Positions 27,340-60,510 of a DNA stretch of 64,000 nt are shown here, one piece after another; position 1 is the stretch's first letter, and the number at the start of each line of letters is the position of its first letter. The stretch spans positions 450,172 to 514,171 of the forward strand of contig OY970358.1 of assembly GCA_963718575.1 (NCBI GenBank). Reading direction: 5' to 3'. The notes beneath the pieces are model-generated. The model saw only the letters and a program-made list of their open reading frames with translations. It ran no database searches and was not told the origin of the DNA. This stretch comes from an uncultured bacterium. Lineage in GTDB: Bacteria > Patescibacteriota > Minisyncoccia > UBA6257 > 2-01-FULL-56-20. Both the position numbers and the translations under genes were made by a program.

Positions 27340-29170
27340 ATGTCCAACCTCACCAAGAATATCATCTGGGGAATCATCACCCTGATCATCGTCGCGCTTA
27401 TCTTTTCGTATTTCGTCGGGCCGCAAACCCAGCCGACCACGCTCAACCTCAACCAGGTCGTTGCGGACATCAACGCCGGAACCATCAAGCAGATAAAAGT
27501 GAACGGCGACGAGCTTGATATCATGATGACCAATGGCAGCGCGGCAGTCGCGCAGAAAGAAGATGAGTCGGGCGTGACGGAAACCCTGAACAACCTCGGA
27601 GTGAACCAGCAGGCCATGCAAAAAGTGGACCTCGAGGTAGTGAACCAGTCAGGCTGGGAATATTGGCTGGGCCTTCTCGCTCCGGATCTGCTCACGCTCC
27701 TCGCGATCGGATTCATCTTCTGGCTCATGTTCCGCCAGGCCAAGACCGGCGTCAACCAGGCATTCCAATTCGGCCGGTCAAACCTTAAGCTTTCAACCGT
27801 CAAAGATAAGGTGATGTTCAAGGATGTCGCCGGATTGAAGGAAGCGAAAGAAGAATTGATAGAGGTCGTCGATTTCTTAAAAAATCCTCAAAAATTCCTT
27901 GACCTCGGCGCACGCATCCCACGCGGTATTCTCTTGATGGGACCTCCGGGCACGGGCAAAACGCTCGTCGCACGCGCGGTCGCGGGCGAAAGCAATGTCC
28001 CCTTCTTCTATATATCAGCGTCGGAGTTCGTGGAAATGTTCGTCGGCGTCGGCGCCTCGCGCACGCGCGACGCCTTTATGCAGGCCAAGCGCGCCTCGCC
28101 CGCCATCCTGTTCATTGATGAGATCGACGCCGTCGGCCGCCAGCGCGGCGCGGGCATGGGCGGCGGCAGCGACGAGCGCGAACAGACGCTGAACCAGATC
28201 CTCGTCGAGATGGACGGCTTTGACCGCGACACGCGCGTGATAGTGCTGGCGGCCACCAATCGTCCTGACATCCTTGACCCCGCGCTCCTCCGTCCCGGCC
28301 GCTTCGACCGCCGCGTCATCCTCGACCTCCCCGACATGAACGACCGCGAATCGATCCTCCGCATCCATTCCGACGGGAAGACCCTCGAAAAGAACGTCGA
28401 CCTGCGCCGCGTCGCGGCCCGCACGCCGGGATTCTCCGGTGCCGATCTTGCAAACTTGATGAACGAGGCCGCGATCGCCTCCGCACGACAGAATAAAAAA
28501 GTCGATCGGCCAGGCAGAACTGCTCGAGGCCGCCGAGAAAGTGATCATGGGACCGGAGCGCAAGAGCCGCGTCATCTCGCAGAAAGAAAAAGAGATCACG
28601 GCGTATCACGAAGGCGGCCACGCGCTCGTCGCCGCGTCCGTCAAAGACGCCGACCCGGTGCAAAAAGTTTCGATCATCTCCCGCGGCTTTGCCGGCGGCT
28701 ACACGATGAAACTGCCGAACGAGGATCAGCACCTTAAGACCCGCAACCAGTTCCTCGCCGACCTCTCGATGATGATGGGCGGCTACGTCTCGGAGAAGCT
28801 CACCTTCGGCGATGTCTCGACCGGCGCATCAAGCGATCTTAAAGAAGCATCCGAGCTCGCGCGGCGGATGGTCGTCAAATACGGCATGAGCGACCTCGGC
28901 CCGATCGTCTTCGGCAAGAGCGAACAGATGATGTTCCTCGGCCAGGAGATCTCGAACGACAAGAACTATTCCGAGCGCGTCGCGTCGGAGATCGACGAAC
29001 AGATCCGCAAGCTCCTCATTCATGCCCAGGACATCGCGGAAAAAATATTGAAGACGCACAAAACGGCGCTTAAAAAGATCGCGGACACGCTGATGGAAAA
29101 AGAGGTCCTCGAGCAGGATGATTTCAACGCAGTACTGAAGCCGTTCAGGATCAAACCGATCGCCGCATAA
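27340..29170 (+). CDS. ftsH: ATP-dependent zinc metalloprotease FtsH; reading frame shifts by +1 inside an A6 run at 28495-28500
   Basis: ORF 27340..28737 carries the N-terminal TM helices plus the AAA module ([31 protein letters not shown] region). ORF 28541..29170 carries the peptidase domain with HEGGHAL. Removing one A from AATAAAAAAGTC gives the canonical ...[30 protein letters not shown]... junction. Confidence 0.85.
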
Positions 29171-30585: not shown

Positions 30586-31722
30586 CTACCCCGTCCAATA
30601 ATAGAGCATAATGCTCAGATCCTGAAGGTCTACCTTGCTGCCGCCATCGAACTCGGCGGGCGGATAGTTCGTCCCCCAATAATAGAGGAGTATGGAGAAG
30701 TCGGCGAGATTGACCTTGCCGTCACCGTTAAGATCGGCGAGGTAGCTTTTGCTCGCGCTTCCGGCACCGACAAAGAACGAGACCGACTGACTGACCTCGC
30801 TCCGGGCGGAGGCGCCGTTCGCGGTGGTCACAAAATCCGCATCCACCGTATGAAGTTCGTTGTTTTGAAGCGGCGAGGTGTCGAATAATATCTTCCAATT
30901 CCCGCCGGTATCGGTACTCGTCGTGACGACGATATTATTACCCGAATGGATATGCGTCTCGACCGTCACCGAAGGCGCGGACTGGCCCGAAATAGTGAGA
31001 GTGTCCCCCTTCTGTAATTGCCGCTTATCGATAGTGATCGTCGGTGGCAGATATTCCCCCGATATGGTGGTCGCGGCATTCGCAGTGATCGTCACGGTCG
31101 TCGTGAGCGCGATCGATTTCAGCCCGTCGGAATCCTGTGCCCAAAATCCGAATGTCGCCACGCCCGGCGATACGTTCGTGGTGGAAAAATAAAAATCTCC
31201 GCTCGAGTCCGCCTTGACGAGACCGATCGTGGCGCCGTCGTCCAAAATGTTCACGCTCGATTCCGGATATGCCGTCCCCTCGATGATGACTTCCGTGGGA
31301 TTGGGAGGGGTATATGCTCCCGGCGAATAGCTCCCGCCACCGGAGGGCGACGTACCCGGACCCGGCAATGGCGCCGTTGATACTATCTGGCATGTGGCGG
31401 AACATCCGTCGCCCGGCGTGCCATTCAACGCACCGTCATCGCATTGTTCGCCATATGCTTCCTGCAATATCCCATCGCCGCAATACGGACCATATCCGCT
31501 GCAATCCGGAAGGCAGTTTTTTCCTGCCGACGATGTCGCATATTGTCCGTTGTCGGTGCCGTCATCGCAGACTTCTCCGGGGTCGACAATGCCATTCCCG
31601 CAGATGCTCACATACACCGTCGTTGTCGCGATGTATTGCGCATGCGCGATGCGTGAAAAGGGCAGCGCTAAAAATACTCCGAGAAATAATGCAAAGAGAA
31701 GCGATTTATATCCATGCCACAT
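30586..31722 (-). CDS. Secreted protein with N-terminal Cys-rich repeats (CxxGxxDxGExCDDGxxNG) and a C-terminal type-I dockerin pair
   Basis: Signal peptide. Repeated CGNGIVDPGEVCDDGTDNG / CGDGILQEAYGEQCDDGALNG units. C-terminus DLNGDGKVNLADFSILLYYWG...DGGSKVDLQDLSIMLYYWTG is a duplicated Ca-binding dockerin motif. Confidence 0.7.
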   Translation of the reverse strand: MWHGYKSLLFALFLGVFLALPFSRIAHAQYIATTTVYVSICGNGIVDPGEVCDDGTDNGQYATSSAGKNCLPDCSGYGPYCGDGILQEAYGEQCDDGALNGTPGDGCSATCQIVSTAPLPGPGTSPSGGGSYSPGAYTPPNPTEVIIEGTAYPESSVNILDDGATIGLVKADSSGDFYFSTTNVSPGVATFGFWAQDSDGLKSIALTTTVTITANAATTISGEYLPPTITIDKRQLQKGDTLTISGQSAPSVTVETHIHSGNNIVVTTSTDTGGNWKILFDTSPLQNNELHTVDADFVTTANGASARSEVSQSVSFFVGAGSASKSYLADLNGDGKVNLADFSILLYYWGTNYPPAEFDGGSKVDLQDLSIMLYYWTG

Positions 31723-34689: not shown

Positions 34690-34780
34690 CGGTCATTCAT
34701 CAATATCATGCTTACCATCAGTATACCGTCAAACCTTCCATAGAAAAAGGAAAGTTATCCACAGCCCTCGCATAAAAATA

Positions 34781-41430: not shown

Positions 41431-43200
41431 TCAGAAGGAAACCGGGGTCACCACCAGATTGAATTGGCAAAAATTTGGCGCAACGGTTCCGTCGTGCTGC
41501 CGCTCTTTGTAGACAACGACCGCATTGTAAGAACCCGGAGCGACGGTCGCCGCAGCAGTGACTCCGATCGTGTCCATTCCCGGACCTTCCGGAATGACCG
41601 TCGCAGATATGCCGGTCGGCAACGATCCGACCGAAGCATCATAGAGAAAAGGAGTTTTTACATTATGGACGGGAGAACTACCAGCGGACGAGGTGCTGTC
41701 GGCCGGCGGCGTCAGCGTGAGAAGGAATGATCCGCCGCCGCCCGCGGCGATCGATTCAGAAAACGGCGTGACGGAACATTCTTGTCCGGCAAAAGGATCG
41801 AACACCTGCTTGAAGGCCTGTACCGGCGGAAGTTCCGCGGGAGGAGGCGGTGCGGCGACCGCAGGCGCGGGTGTGACGTCCTCGGTGGTATCCGACGCGA
41901 CGACATCCGGCTGTGGTTGTGGCGCATCCGCATAACTCACCTCAACGCCCGCGGCATCAAGAAATATCTGCGGAGAACTCGACGCCCCAAGCCCGATGAA
42001 CGCGACCTGAAGATGCTCCAGCTCGGCCCAGGAATCTATTGGGATCGGATACCGCTCTTCCTGCCAGTTCGCGCTGTCGATATTCACCAGCGGCTGCCAT
42101 GTGACGCCGTCCGTCGAGTAGACGACCGAGAGCACCGCATCGCCCGTGCTCGACGGCACGGCGATATTTTGAAACGCCGCCGTATCCACGCTGATGGGCG
42201 CCGATTCCGGAATGCTGGAGGTTCCTACCTGTATATATGAGGTTCCCGTCGGCGTGTCGGACGAATCGTCGCCGGACGTGCTCGTGTCGATCGCCATCGA
42301 CGATGTTTCATCCGCGTATGCAACCCCCACGAGAGCGTGAAGCCATGACGTTGGCGAGGATGCGTCGGAATCCGACGGGTCGCTCACGGGAGCAGGGGCG
42401 GGGGGTTGAACATCGGTATCGTCCGTATTGTTATCCGAACTATTATCTGCTGGCGCACTTTGCGGGACGACGCTTGATGCATCCTCGGTCGGCGCGGGAG
42501 AAGCTTGCGTGGGCGGCGAACTCGAAGCATCGAAAGAGGTATCATCTGATGACGTTGATACGATCGGTACCGGGGCGATGGCGGAACTCGAGGCGTCGGA
42601 AGAAGTATCACTTGCCATGCTCGTACTCGCATCCGCGTCATCCGCAGCAGTTGATGATGCGCTGATAACATCGCCTCCTTCGTCCGAGGAGGAAACATCC
42701 TGAGTTGATGTCGTCACCGATGGGGATGTGGACGAAGATGAGGCAATCACGTCACTGCTACTACTGTCGACATCGCCACCATCATCACCGCCACCACCGC
42801 CGTCGCCCGATGTGATTATGCTCGTGGAAGCGTCTCCCGGAAATATGAACGCCCACGAGACCACAAGGTCGGCGCTCTGAAACGATTCTCCGGTAAGCGT
42901 ATTGATATCCGTATCGCCGGAAAAATTTCCGCAGAACATTTGCGCGGTGCTCGTTCCCATCACTGCGGAATTGAACGTGTTGAATGCCGATACGTCGGCC
43001 CCGGGAGGAAGGTCGGGCTTGCCGAGCGCGTTCTGGACATTCTCCCAATTTCCAAGGCACGATGACGGATAGAAATCCGCAGTGCTCGCAAATCCGACGA
43101 GGACGTACCGCGTCACGGCGCCGGCAACGAGCACCGCGAGCACGGCGACCAGCGCTATCTTATGCCGCCCCCAAAAACGCTTCATCCCCTCCGCGCTCAT
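41431..43200 (-). CDS. Membrane-anchored hyper-acidic Ser/Asp/Thr-rich surface protein
   Basis: Signal anchor IALVAVLAVLVAGAV followed by ~250 aa of S/D/T/A low complexity (SSSDVIASSSSTSPSV...DDADASTSMASDTSSDASSS...). The ORF track start at 43569 adds an Arg-rich 123-aa extension, probably spurious. ATG at 43200 has AGGAAG/GGAAGA upstream. Confidence 0.5.
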   Translation of the reverse strand: MSAEGMKRFWGRHKIALVAVLAVLVAGAVTRYVLVGFASTADFYPSSCLGNWENVQNALGKPDLPPGADVSAFNTFNSAVMGTSTAQMFCGNFSGDTDINTLTGESFQSADLVVSWAFIFPGDASTSIITSGDGGGGGDDGGDVDSSSSDVIASSSSTSPSVTTSTQDVSSSDEGGDVISASSTAADDADASTSMASDTSSDASSSAIAPVPIVSTSSDDTSFDASSSPPTQASPAPTEDASSVVPQSAPADNSSDNNTDDTDVQPPAPAPVSDPSDSDASSPTSWLHALVGVAYADETSSMAIDTSTSGDDSSDTPTGTSYIQVGTSSIPESAPISVDTAAFQNIAVPSSTGDAVLSVVYSTDGVTWQPLVNIDSANWQEERYPIPIDSWAELEHLQVAFIGLGASSSPQIFLDAAGVEVSYADAPQPQPDVVASDTTEDVTPAPAVAAPPPPAELPPVQAFKQVFDPFAGQECSVTPFSESIAAGGGGSFLLTLTPPADSTSSAGSSPVHNVKTPFLYDASVGSLPTGISATVIPEGPGMDTIGVTAAATVAPGSYNAVVVYKERQHDGTVAPNFCQFNLVVTPVSF

Positions 43201-43291
43201 CTCGATCTTCCACGCTTCCTTTTTTTTCAGTACGAGCGTGTGCGGTTCCGTCCCCGGCCTAAAGTCACTCGTCTTTCTTTCCGGCGCACGC

Positions 43292-45115
43292 TTATTCTTC
43301 ATTGAGAGCCTTATCCACATCTTCAATCTCTTTCTGAATGGTGGTCTCCGAAATGACGAGCGCGTTGCGTACCGCATCAAGCACGTTCTCCGGCTCAAGC
43401 TTTGCCTCCCCTTGCGCCTGCGCCGCCCCGCCTTCCATATGGCTGATCTTCTCATCCACCTCTTCGCGCAACGCTTCGAACACCACCTTGGTCCTTTCCC
43501 GCGCCTCATCGTTCTCGCGTTTCGCAAGCTGGAGCTGTAGGGTGTGGATTTTTTTCTTATAGAAGCCATAGGTGGCCATGCCGCTGATACATGCCAGCAA
43601 AAGGATGATCAGTATCCATCCAAACCGGTCGAGGAACGGCGCCGAGATGACATCAATGGAATATTTGTCGGTGGACGATGCGACCGCCCCCTGCGTCGTC
43701 ACCATAGTGGCGACGAGCGCATATTTTCCATCCGAGAGTCCGCCCTCCACCGCATACAACCAGTGTCCCGTCTGGTCGGCCACCATTTTCCCCTCAGAGA
43801 CCGTCTTCCCGTCGCTGTCATTGATATCCACGGTAACATTCGCGCCGCTATCGGCAGTGCCTTCGAGCACGATCGGCGAATGCTCAATCACTGTTTCCGG
43901 GAAATTCGTGATCTCCGGCATCCCCACGCCCGAGATGGAGAACTGGACGTTTTCGCTGGTATAATTCCCCGCCTTATCGAACGCCGATATCTGTACGATG
44001 TGATCTCCCGGAAGGAGCGGCGGAGCGGTGTACACCCCATTCTGCAGATCAGAAAGCGCGACGGTCGAGGAATTCACGCCGTCGAACGTTGCAACATAAT
44101 GATCGATGCCGGAGACGGTGTCGGTCGCGTTGAACATAAGGTTGGTCCGTCCGCTGATGCCCTCTCCCGGAGCGGCGGTCACCGTGAATGGCAATGGCGC
44201 CGAGGTGTCGATATTGACCTGGAAGTTCACCGGGTCGCTCCAGTCGCCGACGGAATCTTCGAACCGAGCATGGAAGTACCACGTGCCGTCGGCTACGTTT
44301 GAATATTGTTTCGAGGACAACAGGCCTGCCGATGTCCGCTTCGGATACGTATCGGGGTTCTGGTCGAATGCGACGCTTACCCCGGCGACATCCGGCGTGA
44401 GCGTCCATGTGAAGCTCGGGCTGTTGTTGTTATACCATTGCGTGGGGTCGGGATCCGTCGGGGACGAGATGGTGATCGTCACCGTGTACGGAGTTTGTGA
44501 TGAGGTATCGGCGGATGCCTGAGACTGCGCCGCGCTATTGTCCGCAGAGGCCGCAGGGGGATTCACTGCGGGAGCGGAAGCCGCCGCTCCGCCGATCGTA
44601 AAGGTCGCCCCGGTATTACTGCCGAGCACATTCGTCCCCTGCCCGTCCGCCGCAAGCACGGACGCGGAAGAGAATTTTATCGACGTCGATCCCGCGCTCA
44701 ATGCTTGAAATGTCACATCAACGACATCCCCAGCACTGCCCGTATACGCGTTATTGCTGCCGCCACTATAATCGACGGTTCCCGCAGTGTTCGAGAATGA
44801 AGGATTGCTGGTCCAAAGATTGAAAACTGAATTGTCCTTCGAAACGCTTTGCACGGCGAGCATCGTCGGATCAAAGCTCAACTCCCCGTCCGCGGCATTC
44901 ACTCCCACTCCTCCGCCGCTGTTCACCATCACGCTTACCGTGAACGTTCCGCCCGTGGCATAGGAACCGCTTGCGGGAGAAAGAGAAAGGCTCGCGCCCC
45001 CCGTCGACTGGGCGCGAACGATCGGGATGATCCCCGCGCTAACCGCAAGACAGCCGAGCGCGAAAACGAAGAGTGCCCGGCAGACAGCGACCGTTCGATG
45101 ATGGTGCTTTCTCAT
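43292..45115 (-). CDS. Cohesin-like domain surface protein with Ig-like repeats, C-terminal TM helix and coiled-coil tail
   Basis: After the signal peptide: SLSLSPASGSYATGGTFTVSVMVNSGGGVGVNAADGELSFDPTMLAVQSVSKDNSVFNLW...GDVVDVTFQALSAGSTSIKFSSASVLAADG follows the cohesin pattern (Gd.vtV.V...g..a.d..lsyDp..L.v.sv.k). C-terminal helix WILIILLLACISGMATYGF then a KRENDEARERTK... coiled coil. Confidence 0.5.
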   Translation of the reverse strand: MRKHHHRTVAVCRALFVFALGCLAVSAGIIPIVRAQSTGGASLSLSPASGSYATGGTFTVSVMVNSGGGVGVNAADGELSFDPTMLAVQSVSKDNSVFNLWTSNPSFSNTAGTVDYSGGSNNAYTGSAGDVVDVTFQALSAGSTSIKFSSASVLAADGQGTNVLGSNTGATFTIGGAAASAPAVNPPAASADNSAAQSQASADTSSQTPYTVTITISSPTDPDPTQWYNNNSPSFTWTLTPDVAGVSVAFDQNPDTYPKRTSAGLLSSKQYSNVADGTWYFHARFEDSVGDWSDPVNFQVNIDTSAPLPFTVTAAPGEGISGRTNLMFNATDTVSGIDHYVATFDGVNSSTVALSDLQNGVYTAPPLLPGDHIVQISAFDKAGNYTSENVQFSISGVGMPEITNFPETVIEHSPIVLEGTADSGANVTVDINDSDGKTVSEGKMVADQTGHWLYAVEGGLSDGKYALVATMVTTQGAVASSTDKYSIDVISAPFLDRFGWILIILLLACISGMATYGFYKKKIHTLQLQLAKRENDEARERTKVVFEALREEVDEKISHMEGGAAQAQGEAKLEPENVLDAVRNALVISETTIQKEIEDVDKALNEE

Positions 45116-45687
45116 TTCTTATTTTCATCCTGTCGGACCTCCTGAACGATAAGTTTCTTGCCCACTCCCGGATGTTTTGCCGGGAGGGTCACCACAAGAA
45201 CGCCGTTCCCGAGGGTCGCCGTGGCGGCACCGCCGTCGAACGATGCGGGAAGATATATCTTACGATACAGCGCTTTCCATTTTATCTCCTGCTTCACGTA
45301 TATTCCTTTTTCCGGAGGATTGCCGTCCTTCGGAACGGCAATCGCGGGAAGTTCCGGCCTCTTTTGGGTCGCCTCAACGACGAGCGTGTTTGATTCCTCG
45401 CTGATCGTTATATCAAAACCGCCGGCGGGAATCCCGCTCGCCTTCAGAAAAACGACCATCCGCGAATCGGATTGAAAAAGATCCACATCGATCGGATCCG
45501 TGCCATCGGGCGCCTTCTCCACCGCCGGCGTCATCACCTGCGCGGGATCATCCTTTTTTATGGAAACAGCCTTGTTGCCGGTGGCGGTATAGGTAACGCT
45601 CTTTGGCGGAGCGACCGCCTTCTCGTCCCCTCCGGCATCATCGTCACCCTGAAGCCTCATCGACAATTTTTCATAAAAGGAACTCAT
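45112..45687 (-). CDS. Hsp20/alpha-crystallin family small heat-shock protein
   Basis: Alpha-crystallin domain: VDLFQSDSRMVVFLKASGI...DITISEESNTLVVEA...GVLVVTLPK. Confidence 0.8.
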   Translation of the reverse strand: MSSFYEKLSMRLQGDDDAGGDEKAVAPPKSVTYTATGNKAVSIKKDDPAQVMTPAVEKAPDGTDPIDVDLFQSDSRMVVFLKASGIPAGGFDITISEESNTLVVEATQKRPELPAIAVPKDGNPPEKGIYVKQEIKWKALYRKIYLPASFDGGAATATLGNGVLVVTLPAKHPGVGKKLIVQEVRQDENKK

Positions 45688-45738: not shown

Positions 45739-47427
45739 TTATCCCGTCCAGTGCGCAAGCATGATGCTCAAATCCGGAAGGTCGACTTTCCCATCGCCGT
45801 TCAGGTCCGCGGGAGCATAATCGGTGCCCCAGTGCGCAAGCATGATGGAAAAATCAACGAGGTTCACCTTTCCGTCGCCATTCAGATCCCCGATCTTCAG
45901 ATTTGCCGCCGCCTCTCCCACTCCGAGAAACGAAGGAGAGGAAAAACTGCTCTCGGCAAGCGACTGCACCAACGAGCGGGCCTTCACTTGATAGGTTCCC
46001 ATCGGAAGTCCGACGGTGGAAAGAGGATATGACCAGACGCCGTTCGGATCCGCGGTCGTCGTCGCCTCGAGCGGAACTCCTCCGTTCGCCTGACTCGTCA
46101 CGAGGATGTCAACCGTGGACGAAGGCTCGCCAAGCCCCGATACAAAGAATGGCTTCCCGAGCGCGACCGTGCTTGTGACAAAGCCGATCGAAGGAGGAAG
46201 AACGACGCCGGTAATATTGTTCGTTGTCCCCGAGATCAAGGTTATCGTCGTGGTGTAAAAAGAGATCGGGGTGGGGCTGCCGTCCGTCACCTCTATCGTA
46301 AATGAATAGGTTCCCTGCGGCAGCGAAGGGATGCTGACGGAAAAATTTCCATAGCTATCCGTCGATGCCGTGGTCGGAATCTGCGACCCGTCCTGAAGTA
46401 CGGCAATGGTCGCGTCGGGCATAGCGATCCCGCTGATCACAAGAGAGGGCGATGGCGGCAACGCCGCGTACGGCGCTCCACCCCCCCCGCCTCCTCCGCC
46501 GCTACTGCCGGACCCGGGAGCTCCTCCCCCGGTCCCTGTTCCCGTCGGGTTGCCGGCGTAAAAAGATATTATGTAATCCGTCGTGTTTTTATTGCCGGCA
46601 TAATCACTGCAACGCGCATAGAAGGTGTACGTGTTTCCCAAGACGATATTCCCGACAATGAACGTATGGAACAAGTCGGATGACTGGTCATCGGTAACAC
46701 CGGCCATCGCATCGTAAGAAACACCGGAGGACGTCGCATATCTACAGGTGGCATATATATTCGTATCAAAGGAGACGAGAACATTTCCGGCGTTGGAAGG
46801 AATCGTGCCCGACGGGAGGCCGTCCGAAAGCACCGGCACGCTTCCATTCGTATTCGCATCGACACCGACCGCCGGAATGATCGCCACCATCGCCGCTCCA
46901 TAGTCGAGCGGAGCGCTCATCGCAGTATAGGTATCGATGAATATCCGGTACGATGCCGGCGCGGAGGGATTGGTGATCTGATAGACGCCGGCCGGAGCGT
47001 TGGTGCCGAGCAAGACGCGCACATACGATCCTGCCGGGATGCCCGAGCCGGACGAGAGCGTGATCGTGATCGGACCCGTCACCGGCGACACCGCGACGCC
47101 GTCATCCGTCCCGTCGGGAATCGCCGCGAGCGTACGTTCGGTGGCGTCGGAAAGAGAGGAGCTTGTCGAAACGGCGAGATCCATATCGGTATAACTGAAA
47201 AGCGGGTCGATGGAGAAGGGGGTGTTCTCAAAAGAGATGACGATCTGTCCCGATGCCGGGATGCCGCTCGTCGTCCTGAAAACGATCGCGTGATTGACTG
47301 AGACCGACGGGCGGGAATCGCTTATCGTATCGCTTACATAGCTCAATTGTGTTTGCGCCTGCGCGGCGCGCGCGACCGGCATCCAAGCAAAAGAAAAAGC
47401 AGCCAAAAACAATAAGGCTGCACTCAT
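45739..47427 (-). CDS. Dockerin-containing surface protein; N-terminal module shared with the 49081/50406 paralogs, Gly-rich linker
   Basis: C-terminus DLNGDGKVNLVDFSIMLAHWGTDYAPADLNGDGKVDLPDLSIMLAHWTG is a type-I dockerin duplicate. N-terminal module LSYVSDTISDSRPSVSVNHAIVFRTTSG... parallels LTNVSDTLSDARPGYPANHTIVFTNPSS. Start taken at MSAALLFLAAF (47427); ORF track start 47580. Confidence 0.65.
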   Translation of the reverse strand: MSAALLFLAAFSFAWMPVARAAQAQTQLSYVSDTISDSRPSVSVNHAIVFRTTSGIPASGQIVISFENTPFSIDPLFSYTDMDLAVSTSSSLSDATERTLAAIPDGTDDGVAVSPVTGPITITLSSGSGIPAGSYVRVLLGTNAPAGVYQITNPSAPASYRIFIDTYTAMSAPLDYGAAMVAIIPAVGVDANTNGSVPVLSDGLPSGTIPSNAGNVLVSFDTNIYATCRYATSSGVSYDAMAGVTDDQSSDLFHTFIVGNIVLGNTYTFYARCSDYAGNKNTTDYIISFYAGNPTGTGTGGGAPGSGSSGGGGGGGGAPYAALPPSPSLVISGIAMPDATIAVLQDGSQIPTTASTDSYGNFSVSIPSLPQGTYSFTIEVTDGSPTPISFYTTTITLISGTTNNITGVVLPPSIGFVTSTVALGKPFFVSGLGEPSSTVDILVTSQANGGVPLEATTTADPNGVWSYPLSTVGLPMGTYQVKARSLVQSLAESSFSSPSFLGVGEAAANLKIGDLNGDGKVNLVDFSIMLAHWGTDYAPADLNGDGKVDLPDLSIMLAHWTG

Positions 47428-47479
47428 GATATAAATGGATCGATGCCTCACCCCTCTATTATATAGGATAGAGAAAAAA

Positions 47480-47860
47480 TTATTCTTCCGGAGGACCCTT
47501 CGGAGTGCGGCGGAAATATTGCCACTCGAAGTAGAAGTTGAGAAAAACAAGGATACCGATGATGGCGATCGCAATGGCAAGATACCAGATCACGGGAGAC
47601 TCCGCAGCGGTAGCCGCCCCGGTGCTGCTCGCGAACGCCGCCTCGCGCGCGGCGAGATCCGCCGCCTGCTGGTTCAGCTCGGTCTGTTGCTGTTGCAATT
47701 GCTCGTTCAGCGTATTGTAAGGGTTCGGCGCGATGCCGACCGCAATGCCGATTTGTGCCAACAACCTCGAAGGAGCCGCCACCCTTCCGCCGGAAAAAAG
47801 GAGGAGGGATGAAATGGCTCCGAGAAGCATTATCAGAAACCAGACCGTCCGTTTATTCAT
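47480..47860 (-). CDS. Small membrane protein with Gln-rich coiled-coil segment
   Basis: Two hydrophobic helices flank LNEQLQQQQTELNQQAADLAAREAAF. Confidence 0.4.
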   Translation of the reverse strand: MNKRTVWFLIMLLGAISSLLLFSGGRVAAPSRLLAQIGIAVGIAPNPYNTLNEQLQQQQTELNQQAADLAAREAAFASSTGAATAAESPVIWYLAIAIAIIGILVFLNFYFEWQYFRRTPKGPPEE

Positions 47861-47867
47861 GCGGCCT

Positions 47868-48992
47868 CTATCCAAAGAAGAACAAGAGGATGAGAAGGAA
47901 GACGAGGGCGAACACCGCCGTCGCGATCACAATAAAGACAAGCCGTGAGAGCGGGAGTCCTCCGCCCGAAAGCAATTTTTCCTCTTCTGATGCGGAAGAA
48001 CGAACTTCTTTGCCGGATTCGCCGATCATGGCACTCACGCGCTTGCGAACGTACGCCTTGACCGCCCAGACGAATATCAGGATGAAGAAAATGATGCTTC
48101 CGAGTACGGCGGCGATCGGAACGACCGGGATGACCCAGAACGTCGCCGATGCGGAAACGGTTTTGTTCTCCGTATCTCCATAATTCAATGTGGTGATGGC
48201 AGTGAATTGCCCGAACGCAAAACCATTGCCTCCCCACGATGCAGTGAATGATCGCTGGGTGCCGGGGAATATTGAGGCTGCCTGATCGTTTACGATCACC
48301 GTCCCCACCTTCTGACCGAACATATTAGTGATATCAATCGGGCCGCGCGGCTGGATCAGTACGTTGCCTTCGTTCGCGATCGATGCGGTAAACGTGACGC
48401 TCGGCGTCTGATAGAGCGATTTGTCGGTCGAGAACTCCTTGATCTCCGCCTGTTCCGTGGCATTACCCGCAATGCGAAGCTCGATGAGCGCGCCAACATT
48501 ATATCCAAGCCCCGATCCGTTGGATGTCGGCCTACTCGCGCCGGACGAAATGAAGATCGCGCCGTAATGTCCTCCGGGTCCGGCGTTCTTCGGAACCGTG
48601 ATCGTGAAAGGGACGGTGACGTTGCCTCCTGCCGGAATCGATATCTCCGTCTCGCCGAGCGAGACCCACGAGCTCAGGCCGTATTCCGGAACTGAAGAAG
48701 TGGTGAAGATCGGTTCGCCGGATCCCTGCATTCCCGAGATATCCTGGACGCCGACCGAGAATTGATGGGCAACGGTATCCGGATTGCTGATGGTTATCGA
48801 GGTCGAAAACTGATCGCCGGGGTTCACGGTCTGCTCAAAAAGGGCGGGCGCCACTTTTATGTTCAGTCCGATTCCGGCAGTCTGCGCGCGAGAAACACCC
48901 CCGAAAAGGACAACTCCCGCCAAGAGAACAAAGCCGGCTCCGGCCGCTAAAGCGATTCGACGCCCCACCCCCCTTTTTGATGTATCCATCAT
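47868..48992 (-). CDS. Membrane-anchored surface protein, CARDB/DUF916-DUF3324-like (family A, member 1)
   Basis: Signal peptide; PALFEQTVNPGDQFSTSITISNPDTVAHQFSVGV (the YFxLxVxPGxxxxxxIxVxN pattern); second beta domain; C-terminal TM helix; cytoplasmic tail. Confidence 0.5.
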   Translation of the reverse strand: MMDTSKRGVGRRIALAAGAGFVLLAGVVLFGGVSRAQTAGIGLNIKVAPALFEQTVNPGDQFSTSITISNPDTVAHQFSVGVQDISGMQGSGEPIFTTSSVPEYGLSSWVSLGETEISIPAGGNVTVPFTITVPKNAGPGGHYGAIFISSGASRPTSNGSGLGYNVGALIELRIAGNATEQAEIKEFSTDKSLYQTPSVTFTASIANEGNVLIQPRGPIDITNMFGQKVGTVIVNDQAASIFPGTQRSFTASWGGNGFAFGQFTAITTLNYGDTENKTVSASATFWVIPVVPIAAVLGSIIFFILIFVWAVKAYVRKRVSAMIGESGKEVRSSASEEEKLLSGGGLPLSRLVFIVIATAVFALVFLLILLFFFG

Positions 48993-49080
48993 TGTTTCGG
49001 CCTGGTTAATAGTTTGAGTCTAGCATATCAGTGCCACCCCGCAAATATCATTTTTCAAGAAGGACGTCCGAGATAATTCC

Positions 49081-50220
49081 CTAGAAGATCGGCGTCGCCA
49101 CGTAAATCTGGTTGTTCACGTAGTCGTTCGCGGCTGCCTGCAGAGGACCGATCTCGATGCGCGTCGTTACCTTCGCGGCGCCAACGTTCTGCGTTGTTCC
49201 ATCCGCAGGGCCAGTCCATCCGAAGACGATGAGCGTGGAGGTCGGATTGAAGCTTCCCGCATAGAGCGGAGTGCTGCTTCCAAAGAACGGACCTCCCACT
49301 GCCGTACTGCTCGTATCGTCGCTCGTGATGCCGACATGTCCGTAGGTATTCGGATTGTTGATGACATTCGTAGGCGATGTCCACGGGGAAGGCGTTGATG
49401 TCGCGTTGGCATTGGAAAACAAGTGGATGATATTGCCTTTGTTGCTCGTAAGATCCTGATCCTCATGCACGGTGACGGCAAATCCGTTCGACGCATTCGT
49501 CGTCACGTTGAGCTGAAGGCCCAATTCGTTATGGGTGGCCGGGGCGATCGTGCCGAACGGAAGGCTTGAGGAGGTATCCGTGCCGGTCGTCGTTGCATTA
49601 TTCCCAAGCGTGGTAGAGGTCGAGAGCGGAGAGATCGTAAAGGTGAAGGTGGTCGCAATGGCGGCGGTGACGTTGACGCCGTTTATGATAGCAATTCTCG
49701 TATCCGCCGAGCTCGGCTGTGTGCCTCCGATGCGGATGATGTATGAACCGGTGCTCGTCGGGTTCGTGATCGTATTGCCCAGGATCTTGAGGGATATCGT
49801 CCCCGAAGCGATCGTGTTGCTCGGGCAAACGGTAAAGGTGAGCACATTATATGAGGTCGTCGCCATCTGAACATTGTTTCCGCTGCCGGGGCAGGTCGAT
49901 GTGGCGATCGTCATCCCCGTCGAGGTCACGTTGGCGATCGAGGTTGAAGTGACACTGCCGAATGCGCTCGTATTGGGATCGAACGTGTACGTGATGCTCT
50001 GACCGGCGGTCGTCGATGAAGGGTTAGTGAACACGATCGTGTGGTTCGCGGGATATCCCGGACGGGCATCGCTCAGCGTATCGCTTACATTCGTCAAACT
50101 TGCCGCGTGAGCAAGCTGAAGGATGCGGAATCCGACCGTCCATGCGAGGAGGCTTATGACCAACCCGATGGTGATTGCGACTATAATATCTTTTTTTACT
50201 ATCTGATGTTCGGTAAACAT
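49081..50220 (-). CDS. Surface protein family B, member 1 (N-terminal signal anchor, Thr/Ser/Asn-rich beta-rich ectodomain, conserved C-terminal ...NDYVNNQIYVATPIF)
   Basis: 379 aa. Tandem paralog of 50406..51536 (~90% nucleotide identity with identical blocks). The C-terminal tail motif is shared with 53670..55022. Confidence 0.5.
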   Translation of the reverse strand: MFTEHQIVKKDIIVAITIGLVISLLAWTVGFRILQLAHAASLTNVSDTLSDARPGYPANHTIVFTNPSSTTAGQSITYTFDPNTSAFGSVTSTSIANVTSTGMTIATSTCPGSGNNVQMATTSYNVLTFTVCPSNTIASGTISLKILGNTITNPTSTGSYIIRIGGTQPSSADTRIAIINGVNVTAAIATTFTFTISPLSTSTTLGNNATTTGTDTSSSLPFGTIAPATHNELGLQLNVTTNASNGFAVTVHEDQDLTSNKGNIIHLFSNANATSTPSPWTSPTNVINNPNTYGHVGITSDDTSSTAVGGPFFGSSTPLYAGSFNPTSTLIVFGWTGPADGTTQNVGAAKVTTRIEIGPLQAAANDYVNNQIYVATPIF

Positions 50221-50405
50221 TTATCTAATCTGAGTTATTTATTTGTAGGCAACTAAAAGTATGGCGACCTTTTTAATTAATTTTTATTATTTGGAAATCA
50301 TTATGATTTCTCGTTGAAATAATTGTACCATAACAAGTTGTAAACATTTCAAGGCCACTTATCCACAGGCAGTCAAGAGAACCGTCCACAGGATAGTTCG
50401 GATTA

Positions 50406-51536
50406 CTAGAACACCGGCGTCGCCACGTAAATGAGATTGTTCTGATAGTCGTTCGCGGCTGCCTGCAGAGGACCGATCTCGATGCGCACCGCTACTTTCG
50501 CGGCGCCAACGTTCTGCGTTACGCCATCCGCCGGACCGTTCCATCCAAACACCATCAGTGTCGATGTCGGATTGAAGCTTCCCGCATAGAGCGGAGTGCT
50601 GGTGCCGAAATTCTTTCCTCCGACAAGCGTACTGCTCGTATCGTCGCTCGTGATGCCGACATGTCCGTAGGTATTCGGATTGTTGATGACATTCGTAGGC
50701 GATGTCCACGGGGAAGGCGTTGATGTCGCGTTGGCATTGGAAAACAAGTGGATGATATTGCCTTTGTTGCTCGTAAGATCCTGATCCTCATGCACGGTGA
50801 CGGCAAATCCGTTCGACGCATTCGTCGTCACGTTGAGCTGAAGGCCCAATTCGTTATGGGTGGCCGGGGCGATCGTGCCGAACGGAAGGCTTGAGGAGGT
50901 ATCCGTGCCGGTCGTCGTTGCATTATTCCCAAGCGTGGTAGAGGTCGAGAGCGGAGAGATCGTAAAGGTGAAGGTGGTCGCAATGGCGGCGGTGACGTTG
51001 ACGCCGTTTAATATCACCACGCGGGTGTCAGCGGAATTTGCCTGCGTGCCTCCGATGCGGATGATGTATGAACCGGTGCTCGTCGGGTTCGTGATCGTAT
51101 TGCCCAGGATCTTGAGGGATATCGTCCCCGAAGAGATCGTGTTGCACGCGGTAAAGGTGAGCACATTATATGAGGTCGTCGCCATGGAAGCGGTGTTGAT
51201 CGCTCCTGCACAGGTTGCGACGACGGACATGCCGGTCGATGTGACGTTCGCGAGAACGGTTGAAGTGACACTGCCGAATGCGCTCGTATTGGGATCGAAC
51301 GTGTACGTGATGCTCTGACCGGCGGTCGTCGATGAAGGGTTAGTGAACACGATCGTGTGGTTCGCGGGATATCCCGGACGGGCATCGCTCAGCGTATCGC
51401 TTACATTCGTCAAACTTGCCGCGTGAGCAAGCTGAAGGATGCGGAATCCGACCGTCCATGCGAGGAGGCTTATGACCAACCCGATGGTGAGCGAGGCAGC
51501 GAGATCTTTTCTAAATGTCCTGTACTGAGAAAACAT
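50406..51536 (-). CDS. Surface protein family B, member 2 (tandem paralog)
   Basis: 376 aa, ends ...NDYQNNLIYVATPVF. Confidence 0.5.
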   Translation of the reverse strand: MFSQYRTFRKDLAASLTIGLVISLLAWTVGFRILQLAHAASLTNVSDTLSDARPGYPANHTIVFTNPSSTTAGQSITYTFDPNTSAFGSVTSTVLANVTSTGMSVVATCAGAINTASMATTSYNVLTFTACNTISSGTISLKILGNTITNPTSTGSYIIRIGGTQANSADTRVVILNGVNVTAAIATTFTFTISPLSTSTTLGNNATTTGTDTSSSLPFGTIAPATHNELGLQLNVTTNASNGFAVTVHEDQDLTSNKGNIIHLFSNANATSTPSPWTSPTNVINNPNTYGHVGITSDDTSSTLVGGKNFGTSTPLYAGSFNPTSTLMVFGWNGPADGVTQNVGAAKVAVRIEIGPLQAAANDYQNNLIYVATPVF

Positions 51537-51602
51537 TTTTTTGATTTTTATCGAGAGCCTCCTTGTAAGAGTATTTTAAAACGGACCATCTGGTTTTGTA
51601 AA

Positions 51603-52655
51603 CTATCGGTCGTGTGGATTCCTGAGATCAAGCGTCCCGTCATCATGGCGGGAAAGCGATGCTTTTCTTTTTTCCTTCGGAACATGCCCGTATCTTTGCA
51701 ATTCGTGCGCAAGCATGTTCCTCACGGCACGCCTTAAGAGATACATACAGGCCATGGCGGCGATAAGGATGCCGAATCCCACCTCTAATAACTGATCAAT
51801 GGGCAGAACCCAGAATCCGATCGTCCGGGTGATGCTTTTTGTTCCATTTTCACCATACCCGAGGCTGAGAACCGCAGTATAAGGCCCGATATCCAGCAGA
51901 CTTGGCTGGCCCTGCCACTCGACATCGAATTCCCGGCTGCTTGACGGGAGGACATACCCAAGCGTCCCCGTCCCGTTGATGGGAATCTCCCCGCGTTCCT
52001 TACCGAAGGCATTGTATATCTGGATCATGCCCGACGGACGGATATGTACATTGCCGGTATTCTGCACATTGACCGAAAAATGCACATCGGGCGTCTGATA
52101 GGAGGGATGGTCGGTCGAAAAATCATGTATCTGTGCCGACTCGATGATATTTCCCGAGACCCGGACGAAGATGAGCGCGGAAATAAAACTGCTCACGCCG
52201 ACCTGGGATTGTCCGGATGGTCCGCTTAACCCTCCTGTCCCGATGAGGATCGCGCCGTAGTGTCCGCCGGGAGATGCGTCGGCGGGCACGGAGATCGAAA
52301 AGGGAACGTCCGCCGTGCCGCCCGCCGGCACATTGACCGATGAACCCGAGACGGTGATCCAATTGGCGAGCGCATCGTCATCACCTGCGAGCGCTGAGAG
52401 CGGAATGAAACTTCCGTGTCCCAGATCGTCCGACGCTTCGAATCCCATGGCTATCGCATGGACCTGCAGGTCGGTCGCATTCGTATTCACCACCCTGATC
52501 GAACTCGACCATATATCCCCGGGATCCACATTCAATTCAAAAAACGGGGGGGTGATCGTGAGCGATGTCGAATCCGCCGTTTGCGCGCGGGATGTCATCG
52601 GCAACAATATCGCCATGGCGACGGCAATGATAAAAAGTTTGCTGATCTTATTCAT
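51603..52655 (-). CDS. Membrane-anchored surface protein, CARDB/DUF916-DUF3324-like (family A, member 2)
   Basis: Signal peptide; PPFFELNVDPGDIWSSSIRVVNTNATDLQVHAIAM; GNVHIRPSGMIQIYNAFG...GPYTAVLSLGYG; C-terminal TM helix and tail. Confidence 0.5.
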   Translation of the reverse strand: MNKISKLFIIAVAMAILLPMTSRAQTADSTSLTITPPFFELNVDPGDIWSSSIRVVNTNATDLQVHAIAMGFEASDDLGHGSFIPLSALAGDDDALANWITVSGSSVNVPAGGTADVPFSISVPADASPGGHYGAILIGTGGLSGPSGQSQVGVSSFISALIFVRVSGNIIESAQIHDFSTDHPSYQTPDVHFSVNVQNTGNVHIRPSGMIQIYNAFGKERGEIPINGTGTLGYVLPSSSREFDVEWQGQPSLLDIGPYTAVLSLGYGENGTKSITRTIGFWVLPIDQLLEVGFGILIAAMACMYLLRRAVRNMLAHELQRYGHVPKEKRKASLSRHDDGTLDLRNPHDR

Positions 52656-53670
52656 GGGGATGGCGAAGGTCTATCGTTGTTTCGAAATTTTTCCTCTTGA
52701 GAAGATTTTCGATCGCGCGGCGGCGGCGATGATGGCGCTTCTCATATTCATGATGGAGCCAGATCGCGAACGCTATTGTCAGAATGAACAACGTCGTGAA
52801 TAGCACGAGTATTTTTTTCCACGGGAGCACCCAGACAAGCGCGGTGTCCTGGAGGTCGCTGTTCTCTCCGCCGTAAGAAAGATCAAGCACCGCCCTGTAC
52901 TGGCCGAGACCCTCCTGCCCCTGCCATGGCGCGGTGAACGATTGTTTCGCGCCGGGCGCAAGTGGAATATTTTCCGGGTTCGCGTCGATCGATCCAAGTT
53001 CGTGTCCAGACCGGTCGTAGAACGTCATCTGGCCGGAAGGGGTGGAGGAAACCTGCCCGTTATTCTCTATTATATAGGTGAACACTACCGGAAACCCCGT
53101 ATAAAAGCTCTTTACTGAGGAAAAAGCGTCGATACGCAGGCTCGCGGTAAGGCCGGATGCGACGGACATATCAATGAGCGTCTGCGGAGCTCCGTTCAGA
53201 TGTTGTTCCGCATCGTCGCGCGTGCCGCCCTCGACGAACGCAATCACCGCATGATAATCCCCCGCCGCGGCGTACGGGCTGATCTGTATCTCGACGGGAG
53301 TGGTGGTCGATTGTCCGGGCTGCAGCAATATGGCTCCGCGCGAGACACCGATCCACGCCGCGAGCAATGTGGCGCGGTCGTCCTGTGAGGGATTTGCAAA
53401 CACCTGCGTACCGCTCGCGGTGAGCTCGCACACCGTGGCAAAGATATTCTCCTGGACGTTCGAAGTATTCGTGATGGTGAGCGAGTAATTCAAAATATCG
53501 TTCGGCACACCGCTGCCGTCGATCACTGCGGGGAGCACGGTGACGGTGTCGGTGTCGGCGTGCGCGACGGGGGGCGTATGCAAGCCGAAGAAAAAAAGAA
53601 TCGCCGCGGCGACGACGGCCGCCGCCATCGTTCCTTCTGTTATTTTTTCATAAAAAAAAGTTTTTTTCAT
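52648..53670 (-). CDS. Membrane-anchored surface protein, CARDB/DUF916-DUF3324-like (family A, member 3)
   Basis: Signal anchor; LNYSLTITNTSNVQENIFATV; GQMTFYDRSGHELGSI...GQYRAVLDLSYGG; C-terminal TM helix plus His/Arg-rich tail. Confidence 0.5.
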   Translation of the reverse strand: MKKTFFYEKITEGTMAAAVVAAAILFFFGLHTPPVAHADTDTVTVLPAVIDGSGVPNDILNYSLTITNTSNVQENIFATVCELTASGTQVFANPSQDDRATLLAAWIGVSRGAILLQPGQSTTTPVEIQISPYAAAGDYHAVIAFVEGGTRDDAEQHLNGAPQTLIDMSVASGLTASLRIDAFSSVKSFYTGFPVVFTYIIENNGQVSSTPSGQMTFYDRSGHELGSIDANPENIPLAPGAKQSFTAPWQGQEGLGQYRAVLDLSYGGENSDLQDTALVWVLPWKKILVLFTTLFILTIAFAIWLHHEYEKRHHRRRRAIENLLKRKNFETTIDLRHPHE

Positions 53671-55022
53671 CAGAATGAAGGGGCGACGACGTAAATAATA
53701 TTGTTCTGATATGCACCCGTGCCCTGTGTCGCCCCGATCTGTGCGCGATAGACCATATCCATCGTACTGCTTACCGCAGGAGACCCGCCATATCCGACCT
53801 CCGCGATCGTTGAAGTAAGCGCCGCGTAACTGTCATCGGCCGCGAAACGCACCGACCCTCCGGACAGCACCGGACTGCCGGCGTGATAGCCGTAACATCC
53901 CGCCGACGTGACGGTACATCCGCTCGACCATGCGACCGGACTCGCATTCGTTCCCGCAACGCCGGGCAGCTGATCGCCGCGCGCATCAGTAAGCTGCTGA
54001 TCCTGTTCGGCATATATCTCATACCCTTCCGCTGCATCCGTCGTGATCAAGAGCCGCTGCGCGGCGATCGTGCTCGTCCCGATAATAAGCGACCCGAAGG
54101 GAATGCCGGTAGCCGTCGTCGAAACGTTCGTCATGACGCCGTTCGTGCTCGTGCTCTGCGGAAGCCCGCTCACGGAAAAGGTCAGTGTCGCTCCCTGCAT
54201 GACCAGGCTCGGATAACTCGACGTGGCGCCGAGCGGGATCACCGTGCTATCGGCGGCAAGGATCGGACGGAAGAAGTAAGCGGTCCCGTTCGATGCGCCG
54301 GATGCCATGATGGTAAATTCATATTCCGTCGTCGCGCCGGCATTCTGCGTTGATGTCGACGTGCTTATGCCCGAAGTATTGTGCGTGCCGCATCCGTTGC
54401 CGACCCCTCCGCTGCACGCGTCGCTTGTCGAGAGCACCGCGGTCGAGATGACCTGATTGTCATTCCCGCCGGTGCTCGTTGCATAGCACCACGTCGAACT
54501 CGCGGTGCAAGCGCTCCCCGCTTCCGCCACAAGCCCGGGGGAAACCGTAAAATCTGACGACTGCGCAAATTGTAAACGAAACTTCAGGTTCGCGCTCCCC
54601 GTGATGCCGCTCATCTCTTTTATATTGAGCCGCAGTTTTATCACCTGCGCGTTCGCGATGTTCGAAGGCGCGACATTCTCCGCGGCAAGCGAACTGGTCG
54701 GCGTCTCGTCGTTCGCATCGCCGTACCATCGCCACGTCTGCGATACCGGTGCGAAGTCGCTCTCGTTCACCGGGCCGGTGTCGGCAGCGAAATCCGTACT
54801 TGCCGCGTTGCCGTTCATCATCGGCGCACCGCCCGAGATCACCTGGAAGTCAGTGGATGAGGCGTTCCCGCCGAACATCCCGACGAAACCATCCTGCACG
54901 ATGAAATCCGTGCTTGTCGCGGTGTCCGCAAATGAAAACACGAACGGTCCCGCGAAGAATGCGATGAGCGTTCCCGCGACCGCGGCGATGATCCATTTAT
55001 GGGGTGGTTTGATTTTGGCCAT
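53670..55022 (-). CDS. Surface protein family B, member 3 (ends ...GAYQNNIIYVVAPSF)
   Basis: 450 aa, N-terminal signal anchor, repeated ASSTDF units. The C-terminal tail matches the family-B motif. Confidence 0.5.
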   Translation of the reverse strand: MAKIKPPHKWIIAAVAGTLIAFFAGPFVFSFADTATSTDFIVQDGFVGMFGGNASSTDFQVISGGAPMMNGNAASTDFAADTGPVNESDFAPVSQTWRWYGDANDETPTSSLAAENVAPSNIANAQVIKLRLNIKEMSGITGSANLKFRLQFAQSSDFTVSPGLVAEAGSACTASSTWCYATSTGGNDNQVISTAVLSTSDACSGGVGNGCGTHNTSGISTSTSTQNAGATTEYEFTIMASGASNGTAYFFRPILAADSTVIPLGATSSYPSLVMQGATLTFSVSGLPQSTSTNGVMTNVSTTATGIPFGSLIIGTSTIAAQRLLITTDAAEGYEIYAEQDQQLTDARGDQLPGVAGTNASPVAWSSGCTVTSAGCYGYHAGSPVLSGGSVRFAADDSYAALTSTIAEVGYGGSPAVSSTMDMVYRAQIGATQGTGAYQNNIIYVVAPSF

Positions 55023-60392: not shown

Positions 60393-60438
60393 CTATAAAC
60401 ATAAGTATAGCACGGCAACTACGATATTTGAGAAAACG

Positions 60439-60510
60439 TCCGCCCGGTAGGATTCGAACCTACGACCAGTCGTGTATAAGACGACGGCTCTACCACTGAG
60501 CTACAGGCGG
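60439..60510 (-). tRNA. tRNA with anticodon TAT (reads AUA; tRNA-Ile(UAU))
   Basis: Reverse complement: acceptor CCGCCTG/CGGGCGG (one T.G), D-arm GCTC-AGTGGTA-GAGC, anticodon arm GTCGT-CTTATAC-ACGAC (U33, A37), T-arm GTAGG-TTCGAAT-CCTAC, discriminator A. Confidence 0.7.

Follow-up and report, generated by a model that had tools for sequence, protein, structure and literature searches.

We analysed a 64,000-nucleotide stretch (hereafter, the window) of contig OY970358.1 (assembly GCA_963718575.1, positions 450,172 to 514,171 of the forward strand) from an uncultured bacterium of the Patescibacteriota (Minisyncoccia; UBA6257; 2-01-FULL-56-20), in which two adjacent genes on the minus strand, here called A and B, are 89.6% identical in DNA over their coding sequences and 88% identical in protein, with A-to-B start-to-start offsets of 1316-1325 bp. 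An earlier reading of this region (hereafter, the original prediction) had described adjacent tandem duplicates of about 90% identity with a period of about 1325 bp, which agrees with these values, and it had seen in them a tandem duplication of a surface-protein gene, which is supported: two intact open reading frames (ORFs) form a true tandem pair that encodes a secreted, surface-type protein. The two genes, the spacer between them and the segments distinguished by a MAFFT alignment of the copies are as follows.

50406..51536, minus strand: gene B, the upstream copy; intact ORF of 376 amino acids (aa) with a predicted signal peptide and two predicted beta-sandwich domains
49081..50220, minus strand: gene A, the downstream copy; intact ORF of 379 aa with the same architecture as B
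50221..50405, minus strand: inter-copy spacer; 185 bp, AT-rich
49303-49685 (A) = 50628-51010 (B), minus strand: identical block of 383 bp; codons ~177-304, start of domain 2
49942-50174 (A) = 51258-51490 (B), minus strand: identical block of 233 bp; signal-peptide h-region and first ~55 mature residues
49721-49808 (A) = 51046-51133 (B): identical block of 88 bp
49809..49941, minus strand: diverged variable loop 1 of A; residues ~94-135, between conserved Cys110 and Cys132, with a type-1 loop 'ATSTCPGSGNNVQ'
~51134-51257, minus strand: counterpart of variable loop 1 in B, with a type-2 loop
49081..49302, minus strand: diverged 3' segment of A; residues 305-379, with its B counterpart at 50406-50627

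Further perfect runs of 42, 37 and 36 bp were found in the same alignment. The two main blocks had been anticipated with small errors: a perfect core does exist where 382 bp had been announced, with a length of 383 bp and a start in B at 50628 instead of 50629, and the 148-bp 5' block announced at 50026-50175 = 51345-51492 lies inside the perfect 233-bp block, so that its length was underestimated and its B coordinates were shifted by 2-3 nt. Upstream of the genes and over the first ~45 nt of the coding sequences, the two copies are unrelated or diverged, and a weak alignability persists for ~30 nt beyond the stop codons. Among the cysteines that bracket variable loop 1, C132 is invariant and C110 is at least 90% conserved in the family alignment. 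Gene B starts 66 nt downstream of a gene (51603..52655) like that of the enterococcal WxL-interacting protein (WxLIP), which is one of several neighbours described further below.

Both copies were recovered independently of the window. The gene B protein has an exact match in public collections (P0121), and that of gene A matches P0001 exactly; gene B is covered by contig L011 and gene A by contigs L001 and L002. L001 (ENA ERZ25039484, 'contig_32193', 276 kb), the second contig that encodes the exact A protein, is a long-read-style assembly from another sample than the window, to which it is 99.4% identical over 12.2 kb with 26 gap openings. It runs collinearly through both copies and shows the same mosaic, with scattered substitutions and small indels in the surrounding 2.6 kb, and so it does not display the single copy that the original prediction had named as the mark of an artefactual duplication. 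The Illumina contig L002 corresponds to window 50754..48777, thus to all of A and the 3' end of B, with 1 mismatch in 1978 bp, and the Illumina contig L011 corresponds to window 51898..50130, including all of B, except for one tract in the A state. Both of them reproduce the identical blocks, although L002 begins within the 383-bp block and L011 ends within the 233-bp block. Among the relatives considered below, the sister genome L003/L015 is MFD00082.bin.1.43, and the metagenome-assembled genomes (MAGs) of Microflora Danica were assembled from Nanopore reads (PMC12313526). Elsewhere in the window, a frameshift near 28.5 kb divides ftsH (27340-29170, plus strand) between two ORFs: 27340..28737 ends in an Arg-rich nonsense tail, and 28541..29170 resumes in another frame with the HEGGH protease motif. 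The probable cause is an indel error of long-read sequencing, the alternative being that ftsH is a true pseudogene.

The mosaic of identical and diverged segments is far from what would be expected by chance. In a permutation test (122 differing columns among 1137, 20000 permutations), the longest perfect run between A and B, of 383 bp, compared with a permuted mean of 47 and a permuted maximum of 115. Nei-Gojobori estimates of the synonymous divergence (dS) and of its ratio to the non-synonymous divergence (dN/dS), calculated for each segment of A and B, showed that the contrast extends to synonymous sites, with a dS of 0 in the 233-bp block (58 synonymous sites) and of ~0.02 in the 383-bp block, compared to 0.90 in variable loop 1 (dN/dS 0.29), 0.48 in the 3' segment and a saturated 2.5 in the first 16 codons. 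For the same gene between species, dS is 1.3-1.9. No sign of diversifying or positive selection was seen on the diverged segments, where dN/dS is 0.2-0.3.

Syntenic loci from relatives (the window being denoted W) carry two copies in L003, L007, L009 and L010, and one copy each in L004, L005 and L006. In the two-copy genomes (W, L003, L007, L009 and L010), the two copies of one genome are 78-92% identical in nucleotides, whereas each is only 55-75% identical to any copy elsewhere; the single-copy WxLIP-like genes of the flanks show 55-75% identity from one genome to another and suggest the grouping ((W, L004, L010), (L003, L007)), L009. The conversion tracts differ by genome, with a perfect run of 201 bp in L003 and, in L007, one of 690 bp that takes up the whole 3' half; at greater distance, a pair in L069 has a 601-bp perfect run at only 78.5% identity overall, and L076 has a 155-bp run. 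Altogether, the dS contrast, the closeness of paralogues within genomes and the tracts that differ between genomes bear out the original prediction that the patchy identity arose by gene conversion or recombination between the copies.

The duplication itself is old. W, L003, L007 and L010 have homologous inter-copy spacers (68-77% identity), with a core CCTGTGGATAAGTGCCCTTGAAATGTTGACAACTTGTTATGATACAAT that is almost invariant in these four and is followed by a conserved hairpin, and the copy-spacer-copy arrangement is therefore ancestral to them. Loop type 1 ('ATSTCPGSGNNVQ') is found in W_A, L007_up, L009_up and both L010 copies, and loop type 2 in W_B, both L003 copies, L004 and L007_dn. At the C-terminus, the type 'KNFGT..WNGPADGV..TPVF' is shared by W_B, L010_up and, nearly so, L003, and the type 'PFFGS..WTGPADGT..TPIF' by W_A, L004 and L010_dn. 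Considering that the spacer is homologous in four species and that loop and C-terminal types are common to several species, the duplication must be old, and the segment-wise distances show ancient alleles common to different species.

We conclude that A and B are very probably old tandem paralogues kept in long-term concerted evolution by recurrent, partial gene conversion. According to this model, a copy, a promoter-bearing spacer and a second copy would have been in place before the split of at least four related Paceibacteria species, and the coding regions would since have been homogenised repeatedly, and each time partially, by non-reciprocal homologous recombination between the copies. 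Each event would copy a tract of a few hundred bp, resetting synonymous sites as well to 100% identity, while segments without recent conversion would retain their old divergence. Conversion would stop at the non-homologous upstream DNA, so that each copy would retain its own 5' end and regulation, B in an operon behind the WxLIP-like gene and A behind its own conserved promoter-like element. Some observations weigh against this model. Loop type 1 lies in the downstream copy in W and in the upstream copy in L007 and L009, making orthology by position inconsistent, so that extra exchanges or reciprocal events are needed, and the single copy of L004 requires that a loss (or an assembly collapse) be invoked.

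Whether conversion still takes place was addressed with three short-read contigs from other samples (L011, L012 and L013), which carry alternative A/B mosaics in contiguous tracts and differ from the window at A/B-informative sites only, with zero private single-nucleotide polymorphisms (SNPs). In L011, which covers the B locus with both flanks, 31 of 31 differences are in the A state and contiguous (B gene positions 910-1049, or window 50627-50488), and in L013 (the same as L014) the whole middle segment at the A locus carries B sequence. L012 (ENA ERZ27249798 k141_632736, 1457 bp) holds an A-B-A-B gene with spacer at both ends and a 141-bp terminal overlap, which makes it either an assembler's collapsed tandem-repeat loop or a three-copy array made by unequal crossing-over. 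A metagenome scan with a 41-mer from the 383-bp block returned one contig only, identical to L013. The variants fit extended conversion tracts and possibly a three-copy array. Against this, each of the three contigs runs through repeats that exceed the assembly k, the overlap of L012 is typical of a looped unitig, and zero private SNPs would also be expected from a chimeric assembly of one haplotype, so that ongoing conversion is unproven. However, two switch points fall in shared runs of just 42 and 88 bp, both below the 141-nt k-mer implied by the name 'k141' of L012 and the former also below the largest k that is usual in short-read assemblers (although L011 may have been assembled with other settings), which argues for real molecules without proving them. 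We therefore consider that conversion is likely, though unproven, to be ongoing in the population. Of what had been proposed, conversion between the copies stands, and its ongoing character is suggested by these short-read contigs; population variants with other mosaic junctions were found, in L011, L012 and L013, but assembly chimeras could explain them. That the locus is an assembly hotspot was correctly foreseen: contigs from short reads are interrupted within the identical blocks, or else close into a loop with a k-mer overlap. In MAGs built from short reads, collapse, breakage or chimerism is to be expected here, and their copy numbers and allele calls are consequently not trustworthy.

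Other explanations of the mosaic were considered. The second copy or the identical blocks could have come from mis-assembly, or from polishing with mis-mapped reads, in repeats that are known to be error-prone, at a locus where short-read contigs break or loop and in a source contig that is seemingly a long-read assembly, given the ftsH frameshift. Yet the independent L001 from another sample has both copies with the same mosaic, the Illumina contigs L002 and L011 reproduce the identical blocks and the relatives carry the same tandem arrangement. On the strength of these independent assemblies, an artefact was rejected and is effectively refuted. Heterogeneous purifying selection would instead make the identical blocks the most constrained parts of two independently evolving paralogues, and the residues that differ between A and B do tend to vary more family-wide (2.05 vs 1.34 bits). 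Such selection does not account for synonymous sites that are also unchanged over the 616 bp of the two blocks (dS 0 to ~0.02), nor for the family-wide entropy of 53 homologues, which is higher in the identical 233-bp block (1.68 bits) than in the diverged C-terminal segment (1.17 bits). Family-wide conservation is thus not highest in the identical blocks, so protein constraint cannot explain the pattern; where constraint is unexceptional, synonymous sites that agree between the copies mean recent copying and not selection. Selective constraint was thus rejected on both dS and family entropy, and we give it next to no chance of being the cause.

Old paralogues with recurrent partial conversion also had to be set against a recent duplication into which diverged patches were brought, in one copy, from other strains or species. 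In variable loop 1, A is nearer to L010 (0.19-0.22) and L007_up (0.25) than to B (0.28), and the loop of B is as near to L003 and L004 (0.26) as to A, as an import would predict. But five lineages, the outgroup L009 included, have two copies at the same syntenic position; four species have homologous spacers, an outcome not to be expected from independent recent duplications; and between A and B the 5' ends and upstream regions show either no relationship or saturated divergence (dS 2.5), making this scenario improbable. Programmed variation, in which one copy would serve as a donor cassette for high-frequency switching of an expressed surface protein, is attractive for a secreted, adhesin-like protein with a variable loop between two conserved cysteines and three contigs with alternative mosaics. 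The original prediction had likewise called the pattern typical of phase- or antigen-variable surface proteins. This part was not supported. No inverted repeats were found in 46-55 kb, and no simple-sequence repeats in or around A and B, where the only Tandem Repeats Finder match is a 19-bp AT-rich unit of 1.9 copies in the spacer; phase variation was therefore rejected for the region scanned. No silent, promoterless or truncated donor cassettes, as in systems of the pilE/pilS, vlsE or msp2 type, were found either: there are just two copies, both full length with a start codon and a signal peptide, and A is preceded by a conserved promoter-like element in the spacer. Furthermore, dN/dS is 0.2-0.3 in the diverged parts, conversion mostly removes differences rather than creating them, and the gene is single copy in 73 of 78 species-representative family loci (a number that short-read collapse may inflate). 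Nothing points to a programmed switching system, and we regard one as improbable too.

Under the preferred model of recurrent conversion between old paralogues, the spacer would be the promoter-bearing part of the unit. It contains the following elements, read from the sequence, and its first motif recurs in the window.

50359-50367, minus strand: DnaA-box-like motif TGTGGATAA in the spacer
50322-50330, minus strand: extended -10-like TGgTACAAT in the spacer
50294-50310, minus strand: hairpin GAAATCA-TAA-TGATTTC in the spacer, just downstream of the -10-like TACAAT
34755-34763 and 43311-43319, minus strand: further perfect copies of TGTGGATAA
58757-58765, plus strand: fourth perfect copy of TGTGGATAA

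The spacer is likely to comprise the promoter and the 5' untranslated region (UTR) of gene A. A consensus promoter scan did not flag a promoter in the spacer, owing to its non-canonical spacing, and the promoter-like core was recognised through cross-species conservation only. The hairpin, which is kept in L003, L007 and L010 with changes in both stem and loop, may be a regulatory structure in the 5' UTR of copy A. As for TGTGGATAA, it is the reverse complement of the DnaA-box consensus TTATCCACA, and its four perfect copies in the window all lie, by position, upstream of a gene and in the same direction as that gene; with one mismatch counted, 21 matches were found vs 10.6 expected. It is conserved in the inter-copy spacer of L003, L007 and L010, and a near-perfect version is found upstream of the first copy in L003, L007 and L009. 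The motif may thus be a promoter-associated or regulator-binding element of this lineage. One of its copies is affected by a gene start: in the longest ORF at 41431-43569, an N-terminal extension rich in Arg and Lys runs over the 3' end of 43292..45115, and the true start of this ORF is probably near 'MSAEGMKRFW...', ~120 codons downstream, in which case one TGTGGATAA motif falls in its promoter region.

The A/B proteins belong to a large family. No match to Pfam, NCBIfam or PDB sequences was found for A and B, either with single sequences or with a 55-sequence profile. More than 664 matches were found at 90% clustering, which are 'hypothetical' wherever named and from Paceibacteria, Parcubacteria or Minisyncoccia wherever an organism is given, and an exhaustive profile search found 2067 family clusters at 50% identity, with species representatives from many Patescibacteria groups. 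An AlphaFold2 model of gene A (predicted local distance difference test score of 89) has an N-terminal hydrophobic helix, which ends at a conserved AHA|AS site, and then two beta-sandwich domains. In Foldseek searches with the whole model, the top matches were the MSCRAMM adhesins SdrE, ClfB, FnBPA and CNA (E 1e-7 to 1e-6, probability 1.0), whose N2-N3 ligand-binding domains are IgG-like and in tandem, but with a template modelling (TM) score of ~0.2, a root mean square deviation of ~25 A and 8-10% identity, which indicates a generic likeness between pairs of beta-sandwiches. One domain of A is near BslA (TM 0.69). The C-terminal domain alone had no significant solved relative in a fold search, its best non-significant matches being the TasA fibre (E 5e-3, TM 0.3) and, among donor-strand-complemented pilins, the PapG pilin domain and EcpA (E 0.02-0.05). 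A and B carry no LPxTG sortase signal, and the protein ends with '...IYVATPIF'. In some relatives, the two-domain module is C-terminal, behind LVIVD, Laminin_G_3, Flg_new or Y_Y_Y domains. The A/B product is most likely a Sec-secreted protein with two beta-sandwich domains, presumably located at the surface.

The pair is surrounded by genes that are related to each other or to its own C-terminal domain.

47868..48992, minus strand: WxLIP-like gene downstream of A; 374 aa, with a signal peptide, a DUF916-like domain, a second immunoglobulin (Ig)-like domain and a C-terminal transmembrane (TM) helix
51603..52655, minus strand: WxLIP-like gene upstream of B; 350 aa, 34% identical to 47868..48992
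52648..53670, minus strand: third WxLIP-like paralogue; 340 aa
31752..32771: fourth WxLIP-like paralogue
53670..55022, minus strand: paralogue of the A/B C-terminal domain; 450 aa, with only that domain in common (31-32% identity), ending with '...NNIIYVVAPSF'

A profile of the three-paralogue family matches Enterococcus faecium WxLIP1 (9i25_C, 9i1y_A; E 3.4e-7), the sole significant matches in PDB, over the PGBD domain and, weakly, over the second domain, and on this basis the neighbours are WxLIP homologues. With single sequences, Pfam WxLIP_PGBD was matched below the gathering threshold (E 5e-4 for 47868..48992, and 8.5e-4), and one homologue, P0211, passes the Pfam gathering score. In related loci, a WxLIP-like gene lies within 4 kb of a module gene in 70 out of 79 cases, and in one homologue the module and WxLIP-like genes are joined, either by fusion or through a gene call that reads across both. 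In Firmicutes, WxLIP proteins have been proposed to bind WxL proteins and to stabilise them on the peptidoglycan surface (PMC10599100), and the literature places WxL domains overwhelmingly in Firmicutes (PMC9772566). A and B would most likely be held at the surface through the neighbouring membrane-anchored WxLIP homologues. Nothing relevant that linked Patescibacteria with WxL was found in a literature search.

A and B are nevertheless not WxL proteins. Pfam WxL had no match in A, in B, in the island proteins described below or in 55 family members, and neither A nor B contains a WxL tripeptide. The family profile found nothing at E<=10 among PDB sequences, even though the WxL complex 9i25 was in the library, and in the list of fold matches for the C-terminal domain, 9i25 was represented by its WxLIP chain alone (E 0.14). 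Membership was therefore rejected for want of a WxL motif, of a Pfam WxL match and of a fold match to the solved complex; the first and the last of these results also weigh against the proposed partnership with the WxLIP homologues. A possible likeness of the C-terminal '...Y.N..IYVATP.F' to the second WxL motif could not be confirmed and carries no weight here. The WxL/Csc clusters of Firmicutes combine WxL proteins, whose C-terminal WxL domain has two Trp-x-Leu motifs, with a WxLIP (DUF916-DUF3324-TM) (PMC9772566, PMC10599100) and are defined by at least one WxLIP and at least two WxL proteins (PMC10599100). The A/B locus is similar in that a WxLIP homologue is present in the cluster and in that small proteins consist of the module alone, while larger ones carry it C-terminally behind lectin, propeller or repeat domains, all with signal peptides. 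It differs in that two WxL-domain proteins and an LPxTG protein are lacking and in that its host belongs to Patescibacteria and not to Bacilli. The locus may then work like a WxL cluster with a different partner module, which we propose as an analogy and not as a claim of membership.

More broadly, the A/B pair lies in a minus-strand island of ~28 kb that encodes secreted proteins. It includes, besides the WxLIP-like genes and the 450-aa paralogue listed above, a 613-aa protein that has the A/B N-terminal domain together with Ig and dockerin domains, as well as cohesin, fibronectin type III and lectin proteins and a MacB-type ABC transporter. One cohesin-domain protein and two dockerin-bearing proteins are encoded at 43292-45115, 45739-47580 and 30586-31722, with an HSP20 gene (45112-45687) in between, and this arrangement, which is conserved in L003, L004, L007 and L009, hints at a cohesin-dockerin surface assembly in a bacterium of the Candidate Phyla Radiation (CPR). 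Two large secreted proteins, at 32887-34689 (600 aa) and 38840-41386 (848 aa; DUF2341, Laminin_G_3), have in common a C-terminal domain of ~300 aa (34% identity) that ends with '...NTFVAVRSAPSTW' and '...NTFIGVENPLPWP', respectively, and looks like an anchor module without a Pfam match. On the minus strand at 60438-60510, ARAGORN predicted a tRNA-Ile with anticodon TAT (UAU), an uncommon bacterial way to read AUA codons.

Gene conversion between tandem paralogues is a well-known mechanism, and what is new here is the setting, in this phylum and this protein family. The Staphylococcus aureus lpl lipoprotein-like cluster (Tsuru & Kobayashi 2008, PMC2568036) also consists of tandem genes for exported proteins of a host-interaction type, in which conserved internal blocks act as recombination substrates and 5' and 3' variable regions are shuffled; there, one ORF's 3' end behaves as a unit together with the spacer and the 5' end that follows, and the A/B spacer is conserved across species. 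Differences are that A and B are two copies and not a larger array, that they belong to Patescibacteria and to another protein family, and that the evidence comes from comparisons between species and a few metagenome contigs instead of many isolate genomes. As in long-lasting prokaryotic concerted evolution (PMC6053082), paralogues within a genome are closer than orthologues through recurrent gene conversion. Unlike in those cases, the protein is an uncharacterised secreted one and just part of each gene is homogenised at any time. In the outer-membrane adhesin genes babA/babB of Helicobacter pylori and in cassette systems such as Neisseria pilE/pilS, non-reciprocal tract transfer between paralogous surface-protein genes gives chimeric alleles. 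The A/B pair differs from both in that it lacks silent cassettes and gives no sign of immune selection or of switching at high frequency, and its copies are adjacent and both seemingly expressible.

A bolder reading, which we find doubtful, would see in the A/B family what WxL proteins are in Firmicutes: a Patescibacteria partner module, as yet lacking a family description, which WxLIP homologues retain on the cell surface, with two ancient types of the loop between the conserved cysteines under balancing selection and conversion shuffling the rest of the gene; if true, conversion events would alter the adhesion or host-contact specificity of these presumed episymbionts. Independently of this, the A/B pair is an unusually clean case of its kind in CPR/Patescibacteria, where surface proteins are thought to mediate host attachment and almost none is characterised, and it flags a large family that has no Pfam or NCBIfam model and travels with WxLIP homologues outside Firmicutes. 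It also shows that homologous recombination in these reduced genomes is effective enough to sustain the concerted evolution of a pair of paralogues across species splits.

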